A stretch of DNA of 64,000 bases, taken from the NCBI GenBank assembly GCA_965242525.1, contig OZ251459.1, positions 3,776,001 to 3,840,000 of the forward strand, written 5' to 3'. Source of the DNA: an uncultured Candidatus Binatia bacterium (lineage in GTDB: Bacteria > Desulfobacterota > Binatia > UBA9968 > JAJDTQ01). A model generated the notes under the pieces. It was not told the DNA's origin, ran no database searches, and worked only from the letters and a program-made list of their open reading frames with translations. Below are positions 9,325 to 32,593 of the stretch, in pieces; position 1 is the first letter of the stretch, and each line of letters opens with the position of its first letter. A program made the position numbers and the translations under genes.

Positions 9325-11670
9325 ATGAAAACCAAAACAGACAATAATGAACCATGCCCGCAAGTATTTGCTGCATTTCCGAGCAAACCACCGGAATTAT
9401 ACGATACTGTTAGGCGTGCGATTGGGAAAGCAGATAGTTCTGACAGTCAGTTAAGTTTTCATGCATGGCCGGAGAGCGATATTGCGGGACGGCCATTAAG
9501 CCAACCAATAGTGAGTGGTATAGAGAACGCCGCATTTGTTGTCGCCGATGTCACCATACTCAATTTCAACGTGACATATGAAATAGGATTTGCTATCGGT
9601 ACAAAGCGGCGTGTGTATCTTATTCGTAATCAAACCTTGAGGCAGGATGATGACAGTATTTCGAGGGTAGGCATTTTCGACACACTGGGGCATGTTGGAT
9701 ATGGCGACTCATTGGAATTAGCTAGGATTTTGACGTCAGGCATCGATCAAACACCCTTGGAGACCAATTTTCCACTGGACCAAAAAACGCCTGTCTATAT
9801 CCTAGAAACACCGTACCGGAACGACGATATGGGATACATTGTATCGCGAACGAAAAAAGCAAGACTTCAGTATCGAAGTTTCAATCCGTCTGAAGAAGTA
9901 AGAATGGCAGCGATCGACAGCGTAAAGCATGTAGCTAGTTCTCATGGTGTTATCTTGCCGTTGCTATCAACGGCGATGCGAGACGCCAGTATTCACAATA
10001 TCCGTGCGGCGTTCGTTGCCGGCTTAGCTCACGGAATGAGAAAACCGACGCTTATTTTGCAGGGTCAAGAGGGACCTGTGCCTTTAGATGTTCGAGATTT
10101 TGTGAAGAGCTACCGACACTTGAATGAAATCGACGAATACATACAGCAATTTGCTTTGGAAGTAGTTGACTCAATGCAAAATGTGGAACCGGCTGCGACA
10201 CCGACTAGGGATACGCTCGCACGATTAACTATCGGTGATCCAATGGCGGAGAATGAGTTTCAGATCTTAGATAATTATTATCTTCGACGCGACGAGTTTG
10301 GTCGATCTATCCGCGGGGAAGTCAACATGGTTGTTGGAAGGAAGGGATCAGGGAAGACAGCCTTGTTTTCCCAGGTTCGTAACGAACTCAGGCGAGACAC
10401 CTCTCGGATTGTGGTCGATCTCAAGCCAGAGGGCTATCAATTGGTCAAGCTAAAGGAGTTTGTGCTCGATCACCTCACTGGTGGAGCCAAGGAGCACTTG
10501 ATTACAGCCTTCTGGGAGTATCTCTTACTCCTGGAAGTCGCCTATAAGCTTCTTGAGAAGGACCAGACTCGCTATATGCGAGATCATGATATACATCCTC
10601 ACTACAAGAAACTACAGGATACCTACCAGAAATCTCCAAATGTAATATTGGGCGACTTCTCTGAACGACTTCGTGAGTTATCATCCCACGTCTCAGATGA
10701 GTACTACGCAAAGGCCCAAAAATACAACGACGGCCGCCTAACATCAGACGAGATCACCGAGGTTTTACATTCTAGAAATATTAAGGAACTTCGAGGAAAC
10801 ATTTCTCGCTATCTGGAGTACAAGGCAGGAGTATGGATTCTATTTGATAACCTGGATAGAGGCTGGAATGTTCCTCGTCCTACAACTAGCGATATTTTAA
10901 TCTTACGTTGCCTCATGGATGCAGGCCGGAAAATTCAGCGAGAAATGCAGCGAGAGGGGCACGATTTTCACTGTGTGGTGTTCATTAGGAATGACGTCTA
11001 TCAGTTGCTAATGAACCAAAGCCCTGATTTTGGCAAAGAGATGCGCGTATCACTTGATTGGAGTGACGCAGAAGTACTCAGGGAAGTCATCAGGCTACGA
11101 CTTGTTTACAATGGATTTCCGTCAGAGACAAAGTTTAGTGTCGTTTGGCCGAAAATCTGTATAAGTCACTACAGAGGGGAAGAGACGTCTCAGTATATGA
11201 TTGATCGCTGTTTGATGCGTCCACGAAATCTATTGAAAATCCTGAATCACTGCAAGGGCTCTGCGGTGAACTTAGGGCACGATCGCATTGAAGCTGACGA
11301 TATAAAGAAAGGAATACTTAGCTATTCATATGATCTATTGATCGAAGCCAGTCAGGAATTGGCAAACATTGATCCACAAGCTGAGGATGTTATTTATCGT
11401 TTTATTGGAGAGAGCTGGAGTTTTTCCGAGGGTGAGATGCTAGAGCTTTTGAAGCAACATGATTTACGAGAAGATCAGTGTGATTCGGTATTAACTTTTC
11501 TCCTCTATTTTGGCTTTCTCGGTATTCGAGTTGATAATGATGATCCTCTATACATTTTTCATGTTGGATACGACATGAAACAATTACAGATGCGTATAGA
11601 AAAGAACAAACATCATCTGAACTACACGTTGAACCCGGCTTTCTGGCCTGCGCTAGGCGTTGGCCCGTAA
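9325..11670 (+). CDS. Tandem NDT/TIR-like domains fused to an Sll1717-like P-loop ATPase (putative defence protein)
   Basis: FVVADVT..NFNVTYEIGFA motif; GDPMAENE; Walker A GRKGSGKT (10336-10359); Walker B ILFDNLD; visibly lower GC than the flanks. Confidence 0.7.
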   Translation: MKTKTDNNEPCPQVFAAFPSKPPELYDTVRRAIGKADSSDSQLSFHAWPESDIAGRPLSQPIVSGIENAAFVVADVTILNFNVTYEIGFAIGTKRRVYLIRNQTLRQDDDSISRVGIFDTLGHVGYGDSLELARILTSGIDQTPLETNFPLDQKTPVYILETPYRNDDMGYIVSRTKKARLQYRSFNPSEEVRMAAIDSVKHVASSHGVILPLLSTAMRDASIHNIRAAFVAGLAHGMRKPTLILQGQEGPVPLDVRDFVKSYRHLNEIDEYIQQFALEVVDSMQNVEPAATPTRDTLARLTIGDPMAENEFQILDNYYLRRDEFGRSIRGEVNMVVGRKGSGKTALFSQVRNELRRDTSRIVVDLKPEGYQLVKLKEFVLDHLTGGAKEHLITAFWEYLLLLEVAYKLLEKDQTRYMRDHDIHPHYKKLQDTYQKSPNVILGDFSERLRELSSHVSDEYYAKAQKYNDGRLTSDEITEVLHSRNIKELRGNISRYLEYKAGVWILFDNLDRGWNVPRPTTSDILILRCLMDAGRKIQREMQREGHDFHCVVFIRNDVYQLLMNQSPDFGKEMRVSLDWSDAEVLREVIRLRLVYNGFPSETKFSVVWPKICISHYRGEETSQYMIDRCLMRPRNLLKILNHCKGSAVNLGHDRIEADDIKKGILSYSYDLLIEASQELANIDPQAEDVIYRFIGESWSFSEGEMLELLKQHDLREDQCDSVLTFLLYFGFLGIRVDNDDPLYIFHVGYDMKQLQMRIEKNKHHLNYTLNPAFWPALGVGP

Positions 11671-23428: not shown

Positions 23429-25510
23429 TCAGTCCCAACCCAGCCAGACGAACAGGTCCCCGGGCGGGAAGGGCAGATGGAGCATCATGTCGAAGATGCC
23501 GGCAAAGAAGAGGTAGGCCACCGCGGTCAGGACCACGGAGACGAGCCAGCCCTCCCGGGCGCCGAGCTTGAGGTAGAGGAAGGTCGCCACCAGCGACGAC
23601 CACACGAACCCGATGAGCCATATGGAGAGGAAGAACCCCACCACCCAGGCGCCGATGGCAAGGGTCCGCCTGCGGGTCTCCGCGGGCGGGATCTCCTCGA
23701 CATCCTCCACCCCCTCCTCCCCGTGGACCACCACCCTGGACCGGGTCATGATCTCCTTCCCGAACACCGCCAAGCTGACGGCGAAGGCCGGAAGCCCGAT
23801 GATGAGCGGGAACAGGGCCGCGCGCTCCTCGTCCGCGCCGAAGCCGAAGAAGCACTCGCGCAGCACGTAGGCGAACAGCGCGACGAAACACAGGGCGAAG
23901 ACCCCGTTGGCCACGCGCTCGTTGCGCGAGACCGCCTCCGTGGTCTTGGTGATCCCGGGCACTGCGAAAGCGGCTTCGTGGCGCTCGGCCCGCTTCCGTT
24001 CCCGGTAGGCCTGGAACAGGGGGTAGAACAGCCCGGCGAGGATGAGCAACATGATGACCAGCACCCCCGGCCGCAGCAGGAACCCGGCCCCATAGACCTT
24101 GGTCGCGATGAAGAGGTTGTTCTCCGCGATGCCGCCGAGGACGAGACCCAGCAGCAGCGGCGGCCGCTGCCAGTCGAACTTGACCATCAGCCACCCCACC
24201 AGCCCGAACACCAGCACCATGACGATGTCCCCGAACGCATTGTTGACGGCGAAGCCGCCCAGGTAGATCAGCATCAGGAGGAACGGGATCAGGTAGGTCC
24301 CCTTGACGAACGTGATCCTCGCCAAGTGGTTCAGGAACAGCAGGCACACCGCGACCGTGATGACGTTTGAGACGACGATGATCCAGACGAAGGAGAACGT
24401 CAGGTCCAGGTGCTTCTCGGGGTCGAGCAGGTCCGGCCCCGGCACGATGCCCTGGATGATGAAGGCCCCCAGCAGTATGGCCATGGAGACGCTGCCGGGC
24501 ACGCCGAAGGCGATGGTCGGCACCAGCGAGCCGCCCTCCTTGGAGTTGTTGGCGGCGCCGGGTCCGAGGACGCCCTCGATGGCGCCCTTGCCGAAGCGGT
24601 CCTTGTCCCCGGGCGAGCTCTGCACCGCGTGGGCGTAGGCCACCCACTGGGCCGGCCCGCCCCCGAGTCCCGGAATGAGGCCGATGTAGGAGCCGATGGC
24701 GCTGCACGACAGCACCAGCTTCCAGTGGCGGAAGGTGTCGATGACGCCCTGCATGACGCCGCCCAGCTTGCCGGTGGACTGGCGCGCGATGCTGGTCCCC
24801 TGGACCGACAGGTCGATGATCTCGGGGATGGCGAACAGGCCCACGGTCACCGACACCAGCGAAAGGCCGTCCCAGAGGAACAGCGCCGCGTCTTCGCCGA
24901 TGACCGGATCGAGGGTGAAGCGCGGCACGCTCTCGATGGGGTCCAGGCCGATGGTGGAGAGGACGAGCCCGAAAGCGCCGGTGCACAGGCCCTTGAGGAT
25001 GTTGCCGCCGCTCAGGGACGCCACGAAGGTGATCCCCAGCAGGGCGAGCATGAAGAACTCCGAGGAGCCGATGGAAAGCACCAGCGGCTGGACGATGGGT
25101 ATGGCCAGGGCCAGGGCGAAGGCGCCGAAGACGGCCCCCACCAGCGAGCTCATGAGCGCGGCCCCCAGGGCGCGGCCGGCTTCGCCCTTCTTGGCCATGG
25201 GGTGGCCGTCCACGATGGTGGCCGCGGTGATGCCTTCGCCAGGCACGCCGAAGAGGATCGAGGTGATGTCCCCGGTGGTGGCGGTCACCGCGTTCGAGCC
25301 CAGGAGGAACGCGAACGCGGTGGTGGGGTCCATCTTGTAGATGAACGGCAGCATGAGCGCCAGCGTGGTGGCCCCGCCGAGTCCGGGCAGGATGCCCACC
25401 ACGAAACCGATGGCGATGCCGATCAGCATGAAGATGAACGGGTCCTGCCCCGCGGCGGTGAACGGCAGGATGTTGGCCAGGCCGGCGAAGAACGAGTGGA
25501 AATGGTCCAT
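23429..25510 (-). CDS. Tripartite tricarboxylate transporter TctA with C-terminal TctB-like fusion
   Basis: GILPGLG, SILFGVPGE, DGHPMAKKG, AANNSKEGG; extra ~160-aa membrane C-terminus ending LPFPPG. Confidence 0.88.
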   Translation of the reverse strand: MDHFHSFFAGLANILPFTAAGQDPFIFMLIGIAIGFVVGILPGLGGATTLALMLPFIYKMDPTTAFAFLLGSNAVTATTGDITSILFGVPGEGITAATIVDGHPMAKKGEAGRALGAALMSSLVGAVFGAFALALAIPIVQPLVLSIGSSEFFMLALLGITFVASLSGGNILKGLCTGAFGLVLSTIGLDPIESVPRFTLDPVIGEDAALFLWDGLSLVSVTVGLFAIPEIIDLSVQGTSIARQSTGKLGGVMQGVIDTFRHWKLVLSCSAIGSYIGLIPGLGGGPAQWVAYAHAVQSSPGDKDRFGKGAIEGVLGPGAANNSKEGGSLVPTIAFGVPGSVSMAILLGAFIIQGIVPGPDLLDPEKHLDLTFSFVWIIVVSNVITVAVCLLFLNHLARITFVKGTYLIPFLLMLIYLGGFAVNNAFGDIVMVLVFGLVGWLMVKFDWQRPPLLLGLVLGGIAENNLFIATKVYGAGFLLRPGVLVIMLLILAGLFYPLFQAYRERKRAERHEAAFAVPGITKTTEAVSRNERVANGVFALCFVALFAYVLRECFFGFGADEERAALFPLIIGLPAFAVSLAVFGKEIMTRSRVVVHGEEGVEDVEEIPPAETRRRTLAIGAWVVGFFLSIWLIGFVWSSLVATFLYLKLGAREGWLVSVVLTAVAYLFFAGIFDMMLHLPFPPGDLFVWLGWD

Positions 25511-26974: not shown

Positions 26975-27600
26975 TTCCGCTCCCTCGCCTCCTCCGCCCT
27001 GGAGGACGGCTGTTTCAGCCCCCTTTGCCAGAGGTGCTCCGTCTCCCCCAGGTTCGCGCCCACCCATCGCCCGAGGACGAAGAACAGGTCGCTCAACCGG
27101 TTGACGTAGCGGAGGGGCCACTCGCCTACGGTCTCCAGCCGCGACAGCCGGAGGATCTCCCGCTCGGCCCGCCGGCACACCGTGCGGCACTGGTGCAGTT
27201 GCGCGCTGACGGGTCCGCCTCCGGGCAGCACGAACGACTCCAGCGGCCGAAGCTCCTTCTGGCGCTCGTCCATGATCCGTTCGAGCCGGGCCACCTGCTC
27301 CCCGCCCATTCGGTGCATGCCCTCGTGGACGAAATCCTCCGGCGTAGCGAGCTCGCCGCCCAGGTCGAAGAGCTCCTGCTGGACGTCCCGGAGCACCGCG
27401 TCGAGCCCGCGGCGCAGTTCAGGCGTCCCCTTCCCTTCCCGGTTCCACGCCCGGGCCAGGCCCACCACCGCGTTGAGCTCGTCGATGGCGCCGTATGCCT
27501 CGATCCTGGCCGAGTCCTTGGGCGCGCGCTTGCCGCCCACCAGGGCGGTGGTTCCGTCGTCGCCGGTGCGCGTATAGACGCGGTTGATCCTGATGGCCAT
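26941..27600 (-). CDS. PduO-type ATP:cob(I)alamin adenosyltransferase
   Basis: VYTRTGDDGTT, AYGAIDELN, FVLPGG, RTVCRRAER, NRLSDLFF. Confidence 0.93.
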   Translation of the reverse strand: MAIRINRVYTRTGDDGTTALVGGKRAPKDSARIEAYGAIDELNAVVGLARAWNREGKGTPELRRGLDAVLRDVQQELFDLGGELATPEDFVHEGMHRMGGEQVARLERIMDERQKELRPLESFVLPGGGPVSAQLHQCRTVCRRAEREILRLSRLETVGEWPLRYVNRLSDLFFVLGRWVGANLGETEHLWQRGLKQPSSRAEEARERKWPESLRAGRR

Positions 27601-27936
27601 CCCGAAAACCCCGACAGCGCTCAGGGTACAGGCTTCGAGGGAAAAATGCGAACCACGGGATGGATGCGAACCACGGGACCGTCCGATGCAGGACGCCGCC
27701 GGAGGGAGAGCGTGATTCCAACGGGGAACGACACCGGAGGAGGGGCGGCACGGGAAGACGAGGGGCGATGAAGGGTGGCGATGGAAGGGGGGCGATGGCG
27801 CGGACCATCGCCCATGCCGGTTCCCCGAAACCGTCACCGCGGGGGGAGGAGTGGACTCCATCCCCCCGCCTCCGCGCGCCCCGACGACGGATCCTCACCT
27901 GCCGTTGGGGTCACCGTCCTCCGGACGTAGAGTATG

Positions 27937-28230
27937 TCAGTATGTCGTGTCGAATCCGAGCGACTCCATTTCCGGCGCAGTGCCGGACTCCAACGCATCC
28001 GCCGCGGCGCCGATCAGGTCGGCCACCGAATCGTCCGAATCGCTCGTGCAGCCACAGCCGCAACCACACCCGCAGCCGCAGCCACATCCGCACCCACAAC
28101 CGCAACCGCACCCACAGCCGCATCCGCATCCGCAACCGTGGATCTCCAGATCCAGGTCTTCGTCACGGGCGTCGAGCAGCCATGTGGTCGCCGCGGCGCC
28201 GGCCAAGTCGGAATCGTTGATGGTTTGCAT
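27937..28230 (-). CDS. 97-aa acidic peptide with a (Gly-Cys)15 core; putative RiPP precursor or metal-binding peptide
   Basis: AAGGAG RBS before ATG; repeat at 28048-28137 uses mixed synonymous codons; non-repetitive acidic flanks. Confidence 0.75.
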   Translation of the reverse strand: MQTINDSDLAGAAATTWLLDARDEDLDLEIHGCGCGCGCGCGCGCGCGCGCGCGCGCGCGCTSDSDDSVADLIGAAADALESGTAPEMESLGFDTTY

Positions 28231-28443
28231 CTCTCGTTCTCCTTCCGTGTCGTGTTGTGGTCCAAAGCCCGCCTACACAGGAAAAGATCGACCGGTGGGG
28301 GGTGGACTTTAGCGGCGACCCCACCCGCGGGAGCGATTTTCCGCGCGGCCCGGGAGCCCGGCCCACGGGTCCGCGGACGTCAGGGAACGGACCGGGACCC
28401 CGGCCCTCTTCCCTGTCGGGCGCCCGAGGTGTTAGAAGGAGGC

Positions 28444-28884
28444 GTGGCGTCCACCCGCACACGGGTCGTCCTGGTCCTGCTGGGGCTGACCGTCCTTACG
28501 GGCTGCCTCCGGGAGGAGGAGATGAAGATGGTCTATGCCCAACGCTGTGCGAGCTGCCACGGCCCGGGCGGGAGGGGCGACGGTCCCGTGGTCCGGGCGC
28601 TCTCGGTGAAGGCGCCGGACTTCCGCGACACGGTGGCCAAACTGGACGTGATCGAGATCCGCCGCATCATCAAGGAGGGCAAGGGCATCATGCCGGCCTT
28701 CCGGCCGGTCCTGGAGAAGCACCAGATCCAGGACATGGTGCGCATGGTGCGGATGCTGAGCATGGAGGGGCGCGAGACCGAATGGTGGGAGAGGTTCGAG
28801 CCTCTCGTCTGGGCCCACTGCTCGGTGCCCTGGCAGTACGTGTACGAGTACCCCGCCCCGGGCAACGACAAGGGGAAACCCTGA
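28444..28884 (+). CDS. Monoheme cytochrome c lipoprotein
   Basis: AAGGAGG RBS + GTG; lipobox LTGC; CASCH heme motif; GKGIMPAF axial Met. Confidence 0.85.
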   Translation: MASTRTRVVLVLLGLTVLTGCLREEEMKMVYAQRCASCHGPGGRGDGPVVRALSVKAPDFRDTVAKLDVIEIRRIIKEGKGIMPAFRPVLEKHQIQDMVRMVRMLSMEGRETEWWERFEPLVWAHCSVPWQYVYEYPAPGNDKGKP

Positions 28885-29188
28885 ACGATCATCCCCGTTC
28901 GTCCTGAGCCTGGCGCCCTGTTCTTGTCATGCACGGCGAATATGTCCCGCGCCGCATCTCTGCTGACAGAGCGACTGTTACAGGGTACTGGCAACAATTA
29001 ACCCCGTTCGTCCTGAACCTGGTGAAGCATCCGTCCTGAGCTTGGCGCAGCATCCCCGTTCGTGCTGAGGTAGCACGAAGCATCCCCGTTCGTCCTGAGC
29101 GTAGCGAAGCGAAGTCGAAGGACGCGCTCGAAGGACGCGCTTTCCCGCAAGGAGAGGGAGTCCGGGCCGGAACGGATCGGACGTTCCG
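28874..29188 (+). repeat. MITE-derived region with several partial tandem copies of the core and one full core (29084-29126)
   Basis: GGAAACCCTGAACGAT end followed by repeated CATCCCCGTTCGTCCTGAGC-like units. Confidence 0.8.
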
Positions 29189-29206
29189 GGGGATCGTAAC
29201 GCAGTG

Positions 29207-30611: not shown

Positions 30612-31589
30612 CTATTTCGGCAACGCGTCGCGCATGGCCTGGGTGTATTTGGTGTAGCTCTTGACGTAGTTGTCCAGGTCGCTCTCCGCGGCCTTGGAGT
30701 CCCCCGGCACGATGGGGCTCTTGGACTTGGCCAGGAACTCCCGGTATTCCGGATCGTTCATGGCCTTGACGAAGAGGTCCTCCAGGATCTTCTTCCGGTC
30801 GTCCGGCAGACCCGGTGGCGCCACGATGCTGCGGCCCACGTAGAGGCGGAGGTCGATGCCCTTCTCCTTTGCCGTCGGGGTGTCCGGAGCGTTGACCGGC
30901 CTCTGGTCGTGCAGGTGCAGGACCGGCCTCACGTCGCCCGACTTGATGTAGGAGGCGGTGGTGGGGTGGTCGATGGGCTGGAGATAGACGTCGAAGTCGT
31001 TCCGGATCATGGCCGGTATGCCCTCGCTGGTGCCGCGGTACCCGGACACCACGTCCATCTTGATGCCGAGCTCCCTGGCCGCCACGAACGTGGGGATCCA
31101 GCGCGACACGCCGATGCCCTCCACGCCCCACTTCACGCGGTCCGCCTTCTGGAGGTCTTCGAGGGTGTGGAAACGGGAGTCCTTGCCGACGATGAGGCTG
31201 TAGGGCTCGGCTCCCACCCGCGCGATGTAGGTGAACTTGGTGACGTCGTAGCCGGTCTTCTCGGCGCCGCTGATCAACTGCTTGCCGAGCATGCCGTCGG
31301 TGAACAGGTGGCCCAGGGTGTAGCCGTCGGGCCTCGCCTTGTACATGGCCACCGTGCCGATGACCAGTCCGCCGCCGGTGATGTTCTTGACCACGATATG
31401 GACGCCCTCGGGCAGGTACTTCCTCATGGTCCTGCCAATGGCCCGGGCCAGCCGGTCGAACCCGCCGCCGGGAGACCCCGCGACGATGATGGTGATGTTC
31501 TTCTTCGGGAAGTCGGCAGCCGCAACGGTCCTCGACTGCGCCAAGCCCACCAGGGCCGCCAGCAATGTCAACGCAACCCATTTCCTCAT
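30612..31589 (-). CDS. Tripartite tricarboxylate transporter substrate-binding protein (TctC/Bug)
   Basis: Signal peptide; FPKKNITIIV..SPGGGFD; ARPDGYTL; AAGGAGG RBS. Confidence 0.92.
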   Translation of the reverse strand: MRKWVALTLLAALVGLAQSRTVAAADFPKKNITIIVAGSPGGGFDRLARAIGRTMRKYLPEGVHIVVKNITGGGLVIGTVAMYKARPDGYTLGHLFTDGMLGKQLISGAEKTGYDVTKFTYIARVGAEPYSLIVGKDSRFHTLEDLQKADRVKWGVEGIGVSRWIPTFVAARELGIKMDVVSGYRGTSEGIPAMIRNDFDVYLQPIDHPTTASYIKSGDVRPVLHLHDQRPVNAPDTPTAKEKGIDLRLYVGRSIVAPPGLPDDRKKILEDLFVKAMNDPEYREFLAKSKSPIVPGDSKAAESDLDNYVKSYTKYTQAMRDALPK

Positions 31590-31866
31590 GACGTCCTCCT
31601 TGTCCGTGGCTTCGCACCCGCCCGATTCCCGGGATTCCCGAGGTTTCGGGATTCCCAAGAGAAACACCATCCGGGAAGGTGTTGTCAAACCCTATTCTCG
31701 CGGGGGGTTCTTGCGCAGGTCCTCGGACCGCCCCGGAACGGGAGGCCGTCGGCCCGGCGTGGCGCGGCTGTCCGGCAGGGGTTCGCCCCCCGATCCGGCG
31801 AGAGTCAGGCAAGGAAACCCCGGACGATCCGGCAAGAGCAAGGCAAGGAAACCCCGGACGACGATT

Positions 31867-31924: not shown

Positions 31925-32167
31925 TCAAGTGAAGTCCGGCGGTTCGCGTATCGGATCCCGCGGGGGCAGTTGCAGTTCCACTCCGCCCAAGGGGGCGAAG
32001 CGGGCGCGTATGGCTTGCGCCAAGTTCTCCGGCTCGGTCCGGGGCCGGACCGCATCCCGCAAGATGATCCGCGCTTCTTCCTCCATGGAATGGCCCCGCT
32101 CGGCCGCCCGCATTCGGAGCCGGGCCTTCACACTGTCTTCGAGGTTTCGGACCGTGATACTCGCCAT
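31925..32167 (-). CDS. FitA-like ribbon-helix-helix antitoxin (no toxin follows)
   Basis: MASITVRNLEDSVKARLRMRAAERGHSMEEEAR...GGVEL; GGAGG RBS. Confidence 0.88.
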   Translation of the reverse strand: MASITVRNLEDSVKARLRMRAAERGHSMEEEARIILRDAVRPRTEPENLAQAIRARFAPLGGVELQLPPRDPIREPPDFT

Positions 32168-32212
32168 AGCCTGCCCTCCATCGCTTGGAAGACAACTTTC
32201 GATGAGCGCGAG

Positions 32213-32593
32213 ATGTCTCCTGAACTGGTCCATTCAAAACGCCACGCGGATGCCCATGCTCCGAATCGTCCCGATGAACAATACGAATATCTGTCCTGTC
32301 AAGAAGGCGGAACGGGACAACTGGACCGCATGTTCAGGGAACCTGGCGACAAACGCGCCAAGTCCCTCGAGCGAATCATCCGGAACAGGATGGTATATCT
32401 GGCAGTCTTCTACAGGAACGAACAGACAAGGTGCAAATGCATCTATGAAATGGATCCCGCGGTCGTGCTCAAAGAGACCGGACGCCAGCTCGATCAAAGC
32501 AGAAACGTCATCTCCCACGTGGGATTCTCCGAAGCCTGGGCAAGGCAGAACGGCCGCGTCGTCTATACCAATCCTTCCTTCGAACCTCGGTAG
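32213..32593 (+). pseudogene. Probable 5'-truncated restriction-endonuclease-like fragment (PvuII-like pattern)
   Basis: DA...QYEYLS, YLAVF..., IYEMDP, ...QNGRVVY; lower GC; no clear RBS. Confidence 0.4.

Follow-up and report, generated by a model that had tools for sequence, protein, structure and literature searches.

Few groups of peptide-modifying enzymes are as large, or as little explored, as the multinuclear non-heme iron oxidases (MNIOs), and the Cys-rich substrates that we know of for them are Sec-exported copper chelators. Here we describe a small gene on a 64 000-nt stretch of DNA from an uncultured Candidatus Binatia bacterium (contig OZ251459.1, positions 3 776 001–3 840 000; this whole stretch is called the window below), encoding a 97-residue peptide with an acidic leader, a core of Gly-Cys dipeptides and an acidic tail. 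We consider it probable, with appreciable room for doubt, that this open reading frame (ORF) is a functional short-form precursor encoded in trans to its enzyme, and a leader-dependent substrate of a new clade of MNIO enzymes. Our confidence in the exact chemistry and in metal binding, both argued by analogy, is lower than that in the link to the MNIO.

The closest described systems are the following. In the parts of PMC12668002 available to us, BufB-, HvfB- and FonB-type enzymes convert Cys to 5-thiooxazole in copper-binding 'captophorins', whose precursors are of the DUF2282, Lys-Cys or Cys-Lys types, and the 5-thiooxazole-forming FonB preferred a Cys-Gly dyad. According to the accessible portions of PMC12452194, the gene for a partner protein most often follows the MNIO gene in MNIO clusters, partners lacking the DUF2063 signature ('PME-type 2') accompany precursors without signal peptides, and 100 proteins of 122–293 residues with 8–21 Cys, encoded in the order precursor, MNIO, PME-type 2 partner, are listed as putative precursors under the name 'adjamnio-I'. 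We found no description of a (Gly-Cys)n precursor in the literature on MNIO-modified peptides of ribosomal synthesis that undergo modification after translation (RiPPs); the supplements of these two papers may hold one. Among the matches listed, no MNIO paper mentioned type I secretion or HlyD, and the words ABC transporter, TauD, Binat- and prolyl were absent from the main text of PMC12452194. The literature on Binatia and RiPPs gave nothing related, as judged by titles and the starts of abstracts.

A leader and an alternating-Cys core in a protein family

The layout given by the original prediction was confirmed from the sequence, namely a 97-residue ORF preceded by AAGGAG, with a 31-residue leader ending in DEDLDLEIH, an uninterrupted (GC)15 core and a 36-residue acidic tail (Table 1). 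The peptide had also been called an orphan, which proved to be wrong. The same genome encodes a paralog of 190 residues (P0016) with the same leader (..TTWLLDARDEDLDLEtH) and a core of 15 units, in which all Cys are retained and some Gly are swapped for Asp, Glu or Ser. Fourteen relatives came from a word-indexed search over 5.8 billion proteins. When one genome per prokaryotic species was scanned for the pattern, 17 of the 44 matching loci were confirmed, and a profile search of 1.84 billion protein representatives gave 22 matches at E 0.001 or better. A third match in the same genome (E 0.116) was rejected as a shadow frame within another gene.

The family signature can be written as ..W.L....DLDLE[IV]H-GCGCGC followed by an (X-Cys)n core. 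Residues M1, W17, L19, L26, D27, E29, H31 and the first GCGCGC are invariant in 19 aligned members, and a Shine-Dalgarno-like motif (GGAG, GAGG or AGGA) starting at −16 to −6 was present in 19 of 19 members examined. The core spans 22–34 residues with 11–16 alternate Cys in 16 of 18 members, and its non-Cys residue varies among Gly, Ser, Ala, Asp, Asn, Glu and Thr in relatives. Every Cys of the (Gly-Cys)15 core, the last one excepted, precedes a Gly, and this core contains no Lys. The suggested kinship of the leader to FxLD and thiopeptide leaders found no support, as scans of the peptide against Pfam and NCBIfam at E up to 10 returned chance rows only (keratin-associated and FEA1-related lipoprotein).

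A bare open frame proves little here, because 57 ORFs of at least 40 residues are listed in 8 kb of this DNA of 65–70% G+C, and the case therefore rests on the relatives. Since these keep the leader and the Cys positions in the same frame, the ORF is more than a chance one. The core is written in mixed codons (TGC 10, TGT 5, GGC 5, GGT 4, GGA 3 and GGG 3), its DNA being an imperfect period-6 array of 15.2 copies with 76% matches (Tandem Repeats Finder) beneath a perfect protein repeat, and the G+C content of the leader by codon position is 0.68/0.39/0.81.

An ortholog (L004) with 88% identity, a (GC)14 core and the same flanking genes as the window locus differs from the peptide gene by four synonymous codons and one non-synonymous codon in the leader and by no non-synonymous codon in the core. 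In related strains, represented by contigs of two other studies, the repeat is shortened by in-frame deletions of 6 nt that differ between the two, strain indels outside the ORF have lengths that are not multiples of three, and the four strain single-nucleotide polymorphisms (SNPs) within leader and core (including those at 28159 and 28168 in the leader) all fall at third codon positions. No plus-strand frame can account for these observations, because a change at the third position of a GGN codon falls on a first position in the antisense frame. These comparisons show that the gene is real, that it is conserved and that selection acts on its Gly-Cys frame, which bears out what had been argued earlier from the mixed codons: changes in leader and core are mostly synonymous, and the family keeps its Cys. 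Repeat number varies beside a conserved leader, with (GC)14 in L004 and the 6-nt strain deletions, and the tail is weakly constrained. Neither of the findings that the original prediction had named beforehand as speaking against the peptide, a lack of homologs or conservation of a plus-strand frame, was obtained when tested.

In the tail, 2 synonymous and 9 non-synonymous codon differences plus indels separate the window gene from L004, and four of the seven strain SNPs lie at first codon positions. The ..SLGFD.. motif with which the tail ends matches the opening (..SMGFDP..) of the C-terminal domain of P0016 and L005, and the window gene may derive from a truncated long form. The stop codon lies inside an 8-nt duplication, of which one related strain (run X4) holds a single copy (8 nt missing at 27931), so that the tail would read on. 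With no related gene beside the window ORF, these features would suit a decaying stub, that is, a P0016-type paralog that lost its C-terminal domain and whose leftover leader and core are no longer used. We regard such decay as unlikely, because leader and core are intact, with synonymous changes only in L004 and two further strains (apart from the one leader codon mentioned), the repeat changes length in in-frame 6-nt steps and the strong Shine-Dalgarno-like motif has been kept. Short forms of about 70–110 residues moreover recur (about 12 of 50 class-sample matches lie in open frames of at most 111 residues), and one of 72 residues (L018) is found immediately upstream of HlyD-TauD, with no membrane-protein gene in between, which makes the domain-less form look like a regular class.

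A candidate modifying enzyme, its partner and an exporter

Genes of the relatives were called by codon-position G+C, the ORFs were clustered, and they were scanned with Pfam and NCBIfam. At one locus (L020, genome G591) the genes after the precursor, all on its strand, encode in order an MNIO of the MbnB/TglH/ChrH family (PF05114, E 3.9e-70), a partner of 261 residues with a DUF2063 match below threshold, an HlyB-type ABC transporter, an HlyD adaptor, a TauD-family dioxygenase, an SDR protein and a prolyl-oligopeptidase-family protein (S9). A whole-genome MNIO search gave two further genomes with the precursor beside the MNIO, one (G636, L023) having the same seven genes in the same order 3′ of the precursor and the other (G644, L024) having the order precursor, S9, MNIO, partner, ABC, HlyD, TauD, plus a degenerate second copy. 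Adjacency to a PF05114 MNIO was found in these three genomes, and in the genome of the window the link is in trans only.

That genome (4.23 Mb, 98.96% complete) has a sole MNIO, lying in an uninterrupted cluster of MNIO, partner, ABC, HlyD, TauD and SDR genes at C1:0.376–0.383 Mb, with the precursor at C1:3.80 Mb and the S9 ortholog apart from the cluster at 1.199 Mb. The cluster proteins are 58–80% identical to those of L020. No Cys-rich small ORF was found beside this MNIO and no DUF2282 bufferin-type precursor in the genome, and a coarse genome-wide scan for Cys-rich ORFs gave 105 candidates with nothing comparable to the peptide; the 25 richest were nearly all shadow frames, except for the peptide, a ferredoxin-like protein and a zinc-ribbon-like protein. 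This leaves the two leader-core genes as the sole visible candidates for this MNIO, and processing would be in trans. A RiPP precursor modified in trans had been foreseen by the original prediction and is the reading that we favour as well; of the enzymes named for it, those that were searched for did not turn up, since the genome gave zero matches to YcaO (PF02624), in a search that matched control genomes, and zero to a LanC-like domain (PF05147), the candidates being instead the MbnB/BufB-type MNIO and its partner, which had not been considered there.

The exporter genes bear on the same link. In four of five genomes tested (G648, G756, G672 and G516), the genome's only HlyD ortholog (67–73% identity) adjoins the precursor and the ABC ortholog (76–79%) adjoins the MNIO, 58–80 kb off; in the fifth (G562), HlyD sits with ABC and MNIO. 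The halves of the exporter are thus split between the enzyme and precursor loci, which ties the two loci together. Seven other loci consist of precursor, small membrane protein, HlyD and TauD, and seven loci of precursor, small membrane protein and S9 peptidase.

The best NCBIfam models for the MNIO were BufB at 203.3 bits (cut-off 310) and HvfB at 177.3 bits (cut-off 360), above ApyH, ChrH and MbnB; the MbnB model gave 40.8 and 46.2 bits against a cut-off of 325, which places the enzyme outside the methanobactin equivalog. Its closest solved relative is 3bww, with TglH (8hci) as a distant sequence match (E 3.7e-18). The AlphaFold model of the partner (pLDDT 86) matched TglI (8hi7_A, E 1.6e-5), NGO1945 (3dee, E 1.2e-3) and, more weakly, MbnC (7dz9_C, E 0.15) in Foldseek, and as modelled the partner has a fold of the TglI/NGO1945/MbnC type; PF26136 is precomputed on many of its relatives. 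The pairing of PME-type 2 partners with precursors lacking signal peptides, as given in the accessible part of PMC12452194, fits the system here. No stretch of 19 residues in the peptide reaches a Kyte-Doolittle value of 1.6 (the leader maximum being 0.36), and by this measure it has neither a hydrophobic segment nor a Sec signal peptide. A complex prediction of MNIO, partner and peptide residues 1–45 scored 0.70–0.73, with 0.00 for two unrelated-peptide controls; with the MNIO-replaced control at 0.64, it was counted as evidence neither way.

From these elements a pathway can be proposed, in which the partner of the genome's single MNIO would bind the 31-residue acidic leader and the MNIO would oxidise the Cys of the (Gly-Cys)15 core. 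If the chemistry follows that of its nearest characterised relatives, BufB and HvfB, the product would carry 5-thiooxazoles, or possibly oxazolone-thioamides, and would be a chain of many heterocycles, rich in thiols and probably copper-chelating. We suggest that the core Cys undergo oxidative heterocyclisation because the best models are BufB and HvfB and the core is made of Cys-Gly dyads, the chemistry being extrapolated from a sub-threshold relative. The HlyB/HlyD type I system beside the enzyme would export the product, and the TauD dioxygenase, the SDR protein and the S9 peptidase may tailor it or remove the leader; with precursor and enzyme cluster unlinked in this genome, processing would take place in trans. 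The ABC transporter was also considered as leader peptidase and rejected, as no Peptidase_C39 match appeared at E 0.001 and the transporter of the window's genome altogether lacks the N-terminal C39-like domain present in adjacent-precursor clusters (e.g. L020:12395-14797); by eye, this domain of the relatives resembles the non-catalytic HlyB type. Double-glycine-type cleavage at ..EIHGC.. was likewise dropped, the usual spacing, as generally known, not being matched.

Two further explanations leave out the modification of the window peptide. Its 15 alternate Cys, very acidic composition (17 Asp and Glu vs one Lys or Arg), missing signal sequence and unlinked gene would also agree with an unmodified metal binder, a metallothionein or gene-encoded phytochelatin mimic with free thiolates for Cu, Zn or Cd, with the MNIO serving some other substrate. 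This appears improbable, as a thiolate cluster needs no 31-residue leader that keeps seven residues invariant and closes with ..E[IV]H directly before GCGCGC, no metallothionein family matched in Pfam or NCBIfam at E up to 10, nothing else came up as a candidate substrate of the genome's only MNIO, and the adjacency of MNIO, partner and exporter genes in three genomes, the split-operon linkage and the toxin-like fusions described below would all go unexplained.

That the leader and Cys stretch are a mere secretion or trafficking module for HlyB/HlyD, with the MNIO acting elsewhere or on long forms only and the window copy being devoid of cargo, is in our judgement quite unlikely. Type I substrates normally have C-terminal signals (e.g. 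PMC5018854, in the part available), an MNIO and a partner of peptide-binding fold accompany the module, and precursor-MNIO-partner is the usual order of MNIO clusters in the portions of PMC12452194 at hand. What such a module would account for is the presence of one N-terminal unit before at least four unrelated kinds of C-terminal region, the adjacency of HlyD to the precursor in several genomes and the distribution of a small membrane-protein gene (2–4 hydrophobic segments), which adjoins 13 of 13 loci with Gly/Ala-rich C-terminal regions and none of the five others.

By public record, the 17 loci come from Candidatus Binatia (13), Thermodesulfobacteriota bacterium (2) and Deltaproteobacteria bacterium (2), all of them metagenome-assembled genomes. 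The leader-core profile matched one of 401 genomes sampled from the phylum, namely that of the window, and 26 of 401 genomes in the class sample, with 1–3 copies per genome. The peptide family was found in 25 of the 26 genomes of the window's own genus (g1) and in none of 374 others of the class, and on these counts it is restricted to one genus of sponge-associated bacteria; DNA runs in which the stretch occurs include some recorded as sponge metagenomes. MNIO orthologs of at least 76% identity occur in 24 of the 26 genus genomes, and the other MNIO matches in the class, among the matches listed, are all at most 40% identical (the class-wide MNIO tally of 262 in 401 includes five genomes flagged as unpublished, G600, G474, G595, G731 and G570, none of them in the genus and none supporting a specific claim made here). 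One genus genome (G468; 2.7 Mb, 98% complete) lacks precursor, MNIO and partner and has only distant relatives of TauD and S9, and another (G718, 76% complete) has precursors with no MNIO found. This co-occurrence of precursor and MNIO across close kin is suggestive and does not amount to a statistical test.

Several points weigh against a functional MNIO substrate encoded in trans. In the window's own genome a distance of 3.4 Mb separates precursor and enzyme, the precursor has no related neighbour, and the two are adjacent in only 3 of the 25 genus genomes that carry the peptide; all co-occurrence is within one genus, the genomes of which are not independent. The MNIO scores under the curated BufB and HvfB cut-offs, so that the chemistry is extrapolated, the partner is below the DUF2063 threshold (13.9–21.3 bits vs 27.2 in five relatives scanned), and we found no precedent for a run of fifteen neighbouring modifications on every second residue. 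There is almost no constraint on the evolution of the tail, and its stop codon is set by the 8-nt duplication, which would fit a decaying remnant too, and the 11 sequencing runs found for the stretch include no RNA run.

Long forms of the family and the setting of the window gene

Most family members have 140–310 residues, in which the core is followed by a D/E/S-rich stretch and then by one of several unrelated C-terminal regions. The types seen were a Gly/Ala-rich hydrophobic segment between two Cys (13 loci), Ala/Glu-rich helical regions (L020, L024 and P0242), the domain of P0016 and L005, and, in three metagenome representatives (P0237, P0243 and P0244), a C-terminal domain with invariant S.HYSGDAIDL and H.HIE motifs. 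A Sel1-repeat protein gene follows P0016 on the same strand and the same pair is found in L005, which may be a toxin-immunity-like pair of a second type. For the P0237/P0243/P0244 domain there is a hint only, from its motifs, of an LAS-type zinc peptidase-like protein: Pfam gave HH_signal only (E 0.021), a PDB sequence search gave nothing, and a low-confidence model (pLDDT 51) reached VIA-align Z values of at most 5, with Hedgehog-N and Zn DD-peptidase tied among unrelated rows. The long forms yielded no match to a toxin family, an atlas search gave only small membrane proteins without names for the small membrane neighbour, and the genome of the window has no homolog of this neighbour.

The long-form layout resembles that of bacteriocins or polymorphic toxins with immunity genes, as far as sequence can tell: the paralogs would join the same leader and core to variable toxin-like C-terminal domains beside immunity-like neighbours, and the window short form has neither. 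One may speculate further, though we think it rather doubtful, that an MNIO-made poly-thiooxazole metallophore stays attached to a killing domain (pore-forming, cell-wall-degrading or other) as a ribosomal 'Trojan horse' metallophore-bacteriocin, with type I export and a neighbouring immunity gene, the short forms then being the free metallophore.

Within the window, the peptide ORF has a cytochrome c gene and a cobalamin adenosyltransferase gene as neighbours. An MFS gene beside it clustered with the MFS genes found upstream of precursors in seven loci and was considered as shared synteny; this link was dropped, because it is only 27–28% identical to those of the seven loci and their true orthologs lie elsewhere in the genome (C1:26–30 kb). 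An Rfam scan of 27300–28900 gave zero matches, and no promoter- or terminator-like sites were found in 27500–28700. A 14-nt tandem repeat of 2.7 copies (27762–27798), one unit of which is missing in a related strain, lies in the 330 nt that separate the peptide ORF from the cobalamin adenosyltransferase gene. Between the cytochrome c and MFS genes lies an interspersed element of about 45 nt (29085–29130), with partial copies across 28885–29200. In blastn at E 1e-5 or better it matches the 4.23-Mb genome about 690 times, and it is also present upstream of the MNIO gene (L022 ~10950–11300). It is the source of recurring strings in many shadow ORFs, and it looks like a REP/MITE-type repeat. Further off, a 102-aa ORF on the minus strand (31925–32233), beginning MASITVRNLEDSVKARLR.., recalls ribbon-helix-helix antitoxins of the FitA/VapB kind. 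Tripartite tricarboxylate transporter genes, recognized by eye from their translations as encoding a TctA-like large membrane protein and a TctC-like binding protein, flank the region at 23429–25510 and 30612–31688, with no apparent link to the peptide.

Table 1. Coordinates of the peptide gene and its parts in the window, and of related genes elsewhere in the same genome.
Feature	Position	Strand	Remarks
97-aa ATG ORF	27937..28230 (stop codon included)	minus	short-form member of the leader-(X-Cys)n family; from ORF list and homologs
Shine-Dalgarno-like AAGGAG	28239..28244	minus	8 nt 5′ of the ATG, at −14..−9
Acidic leader, 31 aa, codons 1–31	28138..28230	minus	conserved; presumed recognition part; ends DEDLDLEIH
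(Gly-Cys)15 core, codons 32–61	28048..28137	minus	uninterrupted; presumed modification site
Acidic tail, 36 aa, codons 62–97	27940..28047	minus	weakly constrained; carries ..LGFD.. motif
8-nt tandem duplication (AGTATGTC x2)	27931..27946		includes the ORF stop codon; Tandem Repeats Finder
Paralog P0016, 190 aa	G000:C1:1579205-1579774 (L002:1231-1800)	minus	long form
MNIO	C1:381956-382747		sole MNIO of the genome
Partner	C1:381091-381894		beside the MNIO
HlyB-type ABC transporter	C1:379263-381107		starts at about HlyB model position 114

Comparison with described systems

If the peptide is indeed processed as proposed, MNIO substrates would extend to leader-bearing precursors without a signal peptide, to a pure dipeptide-repeat core with up to 16 target Cys, to type I export and to a module fused to interchangeable toxin-like domains. 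The system bears on the ability of an MNIO to act on every second residue over a length of 30, and it may serve competition or metal handling in uncultured sponge-associated Binatia. It also illustrates that precursors lying megabases from their enzymes can be assigned by comparison of related genomes. Should the attached-metallophore idea be true, sponge symbionts would possess modified polymorphic toxins of a new class, with the densest MNIO-modified core known.

Our best reading places the family among the Cys-rich MNIO-modified peptides and outside the bufferin/captophorin family, because four defining features of the latter (MNIO scores above the model cut-offs, a DUF2063 partner, a Sec signal, and a DUF2282, EGKCG or Cys-Lys precursor) were tested for and not found. 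As the known systems are described in the parts of the papers at hand, the order of a Cys-rich ribosomal precursor, an MNIO and a partner is shared with captophorins/bufferins, oxazolin and fontiphorin. These systems further have in common with the present one that BufB and HvfB are the best MNIO models, that Cys stands before Gly and that Cys motifs are repeated, possibly many times per protein. The MNIO here is, in contrast, below both cut-offs, the partner has no DUF2063 signature, and the precursor carries an acidic leader in place of a Sec signal peptide. Its core repeats a dipeptide, (X-Cys)n, and is not of the EGKCG, DUF2282 or Cys-Lys types of the accessible descriptions, in which DoxX takes the place of the HlyB/HlyD exporter, TauD, SDR and S9 peptidase. 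Precursor genes here frequently lie apart from the enzyme gene, and fusions to toxin-like domains are frequent as well.

Pearlin (TglHI) and methanobactin (MbnBC) share with this system a leader-dependent precursor without signal peptide and a non-DUF2063 partner, the modelled partner fold being closest to TglI (8hi7_A) with MbnC also matched; one or two Cys are targeted in those systems, vs 11–16 candidate positions here. Heterocycloanthracin-type thiazole/oxazole-modified microcin precursors, with their Cys-Xaa-Xaa repeats, are known in general to have regularly spaced Cys and small residues after a leader, as seen here. They need a YcaO cyclodehydratase, of which none was found in the window's genome, and their period is 3 instead of 2. 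In siderophore-microcins a metal chelator is attached to a toxin, and these, like polymorphic toxins, are generally known to combine a constant module with a killing domain, an adjacent immunity gene and ABC/HlyD-type export. The constant module differs here in being N-terminal, ribosomal and Cys-rich, with an MNIO as the candidate modifier. Finally, the MNIO-adjacent long forms (L020, L023 and L024) resemble the adjamnio-I precursors in length, Cys count, gene order and partner type, as far as the latter are described in the available portions of PMC12452194, whereas the window's own 97-aa, trans-encoded short form lies outside their range of 122–293 residues, the comparison being by description only.

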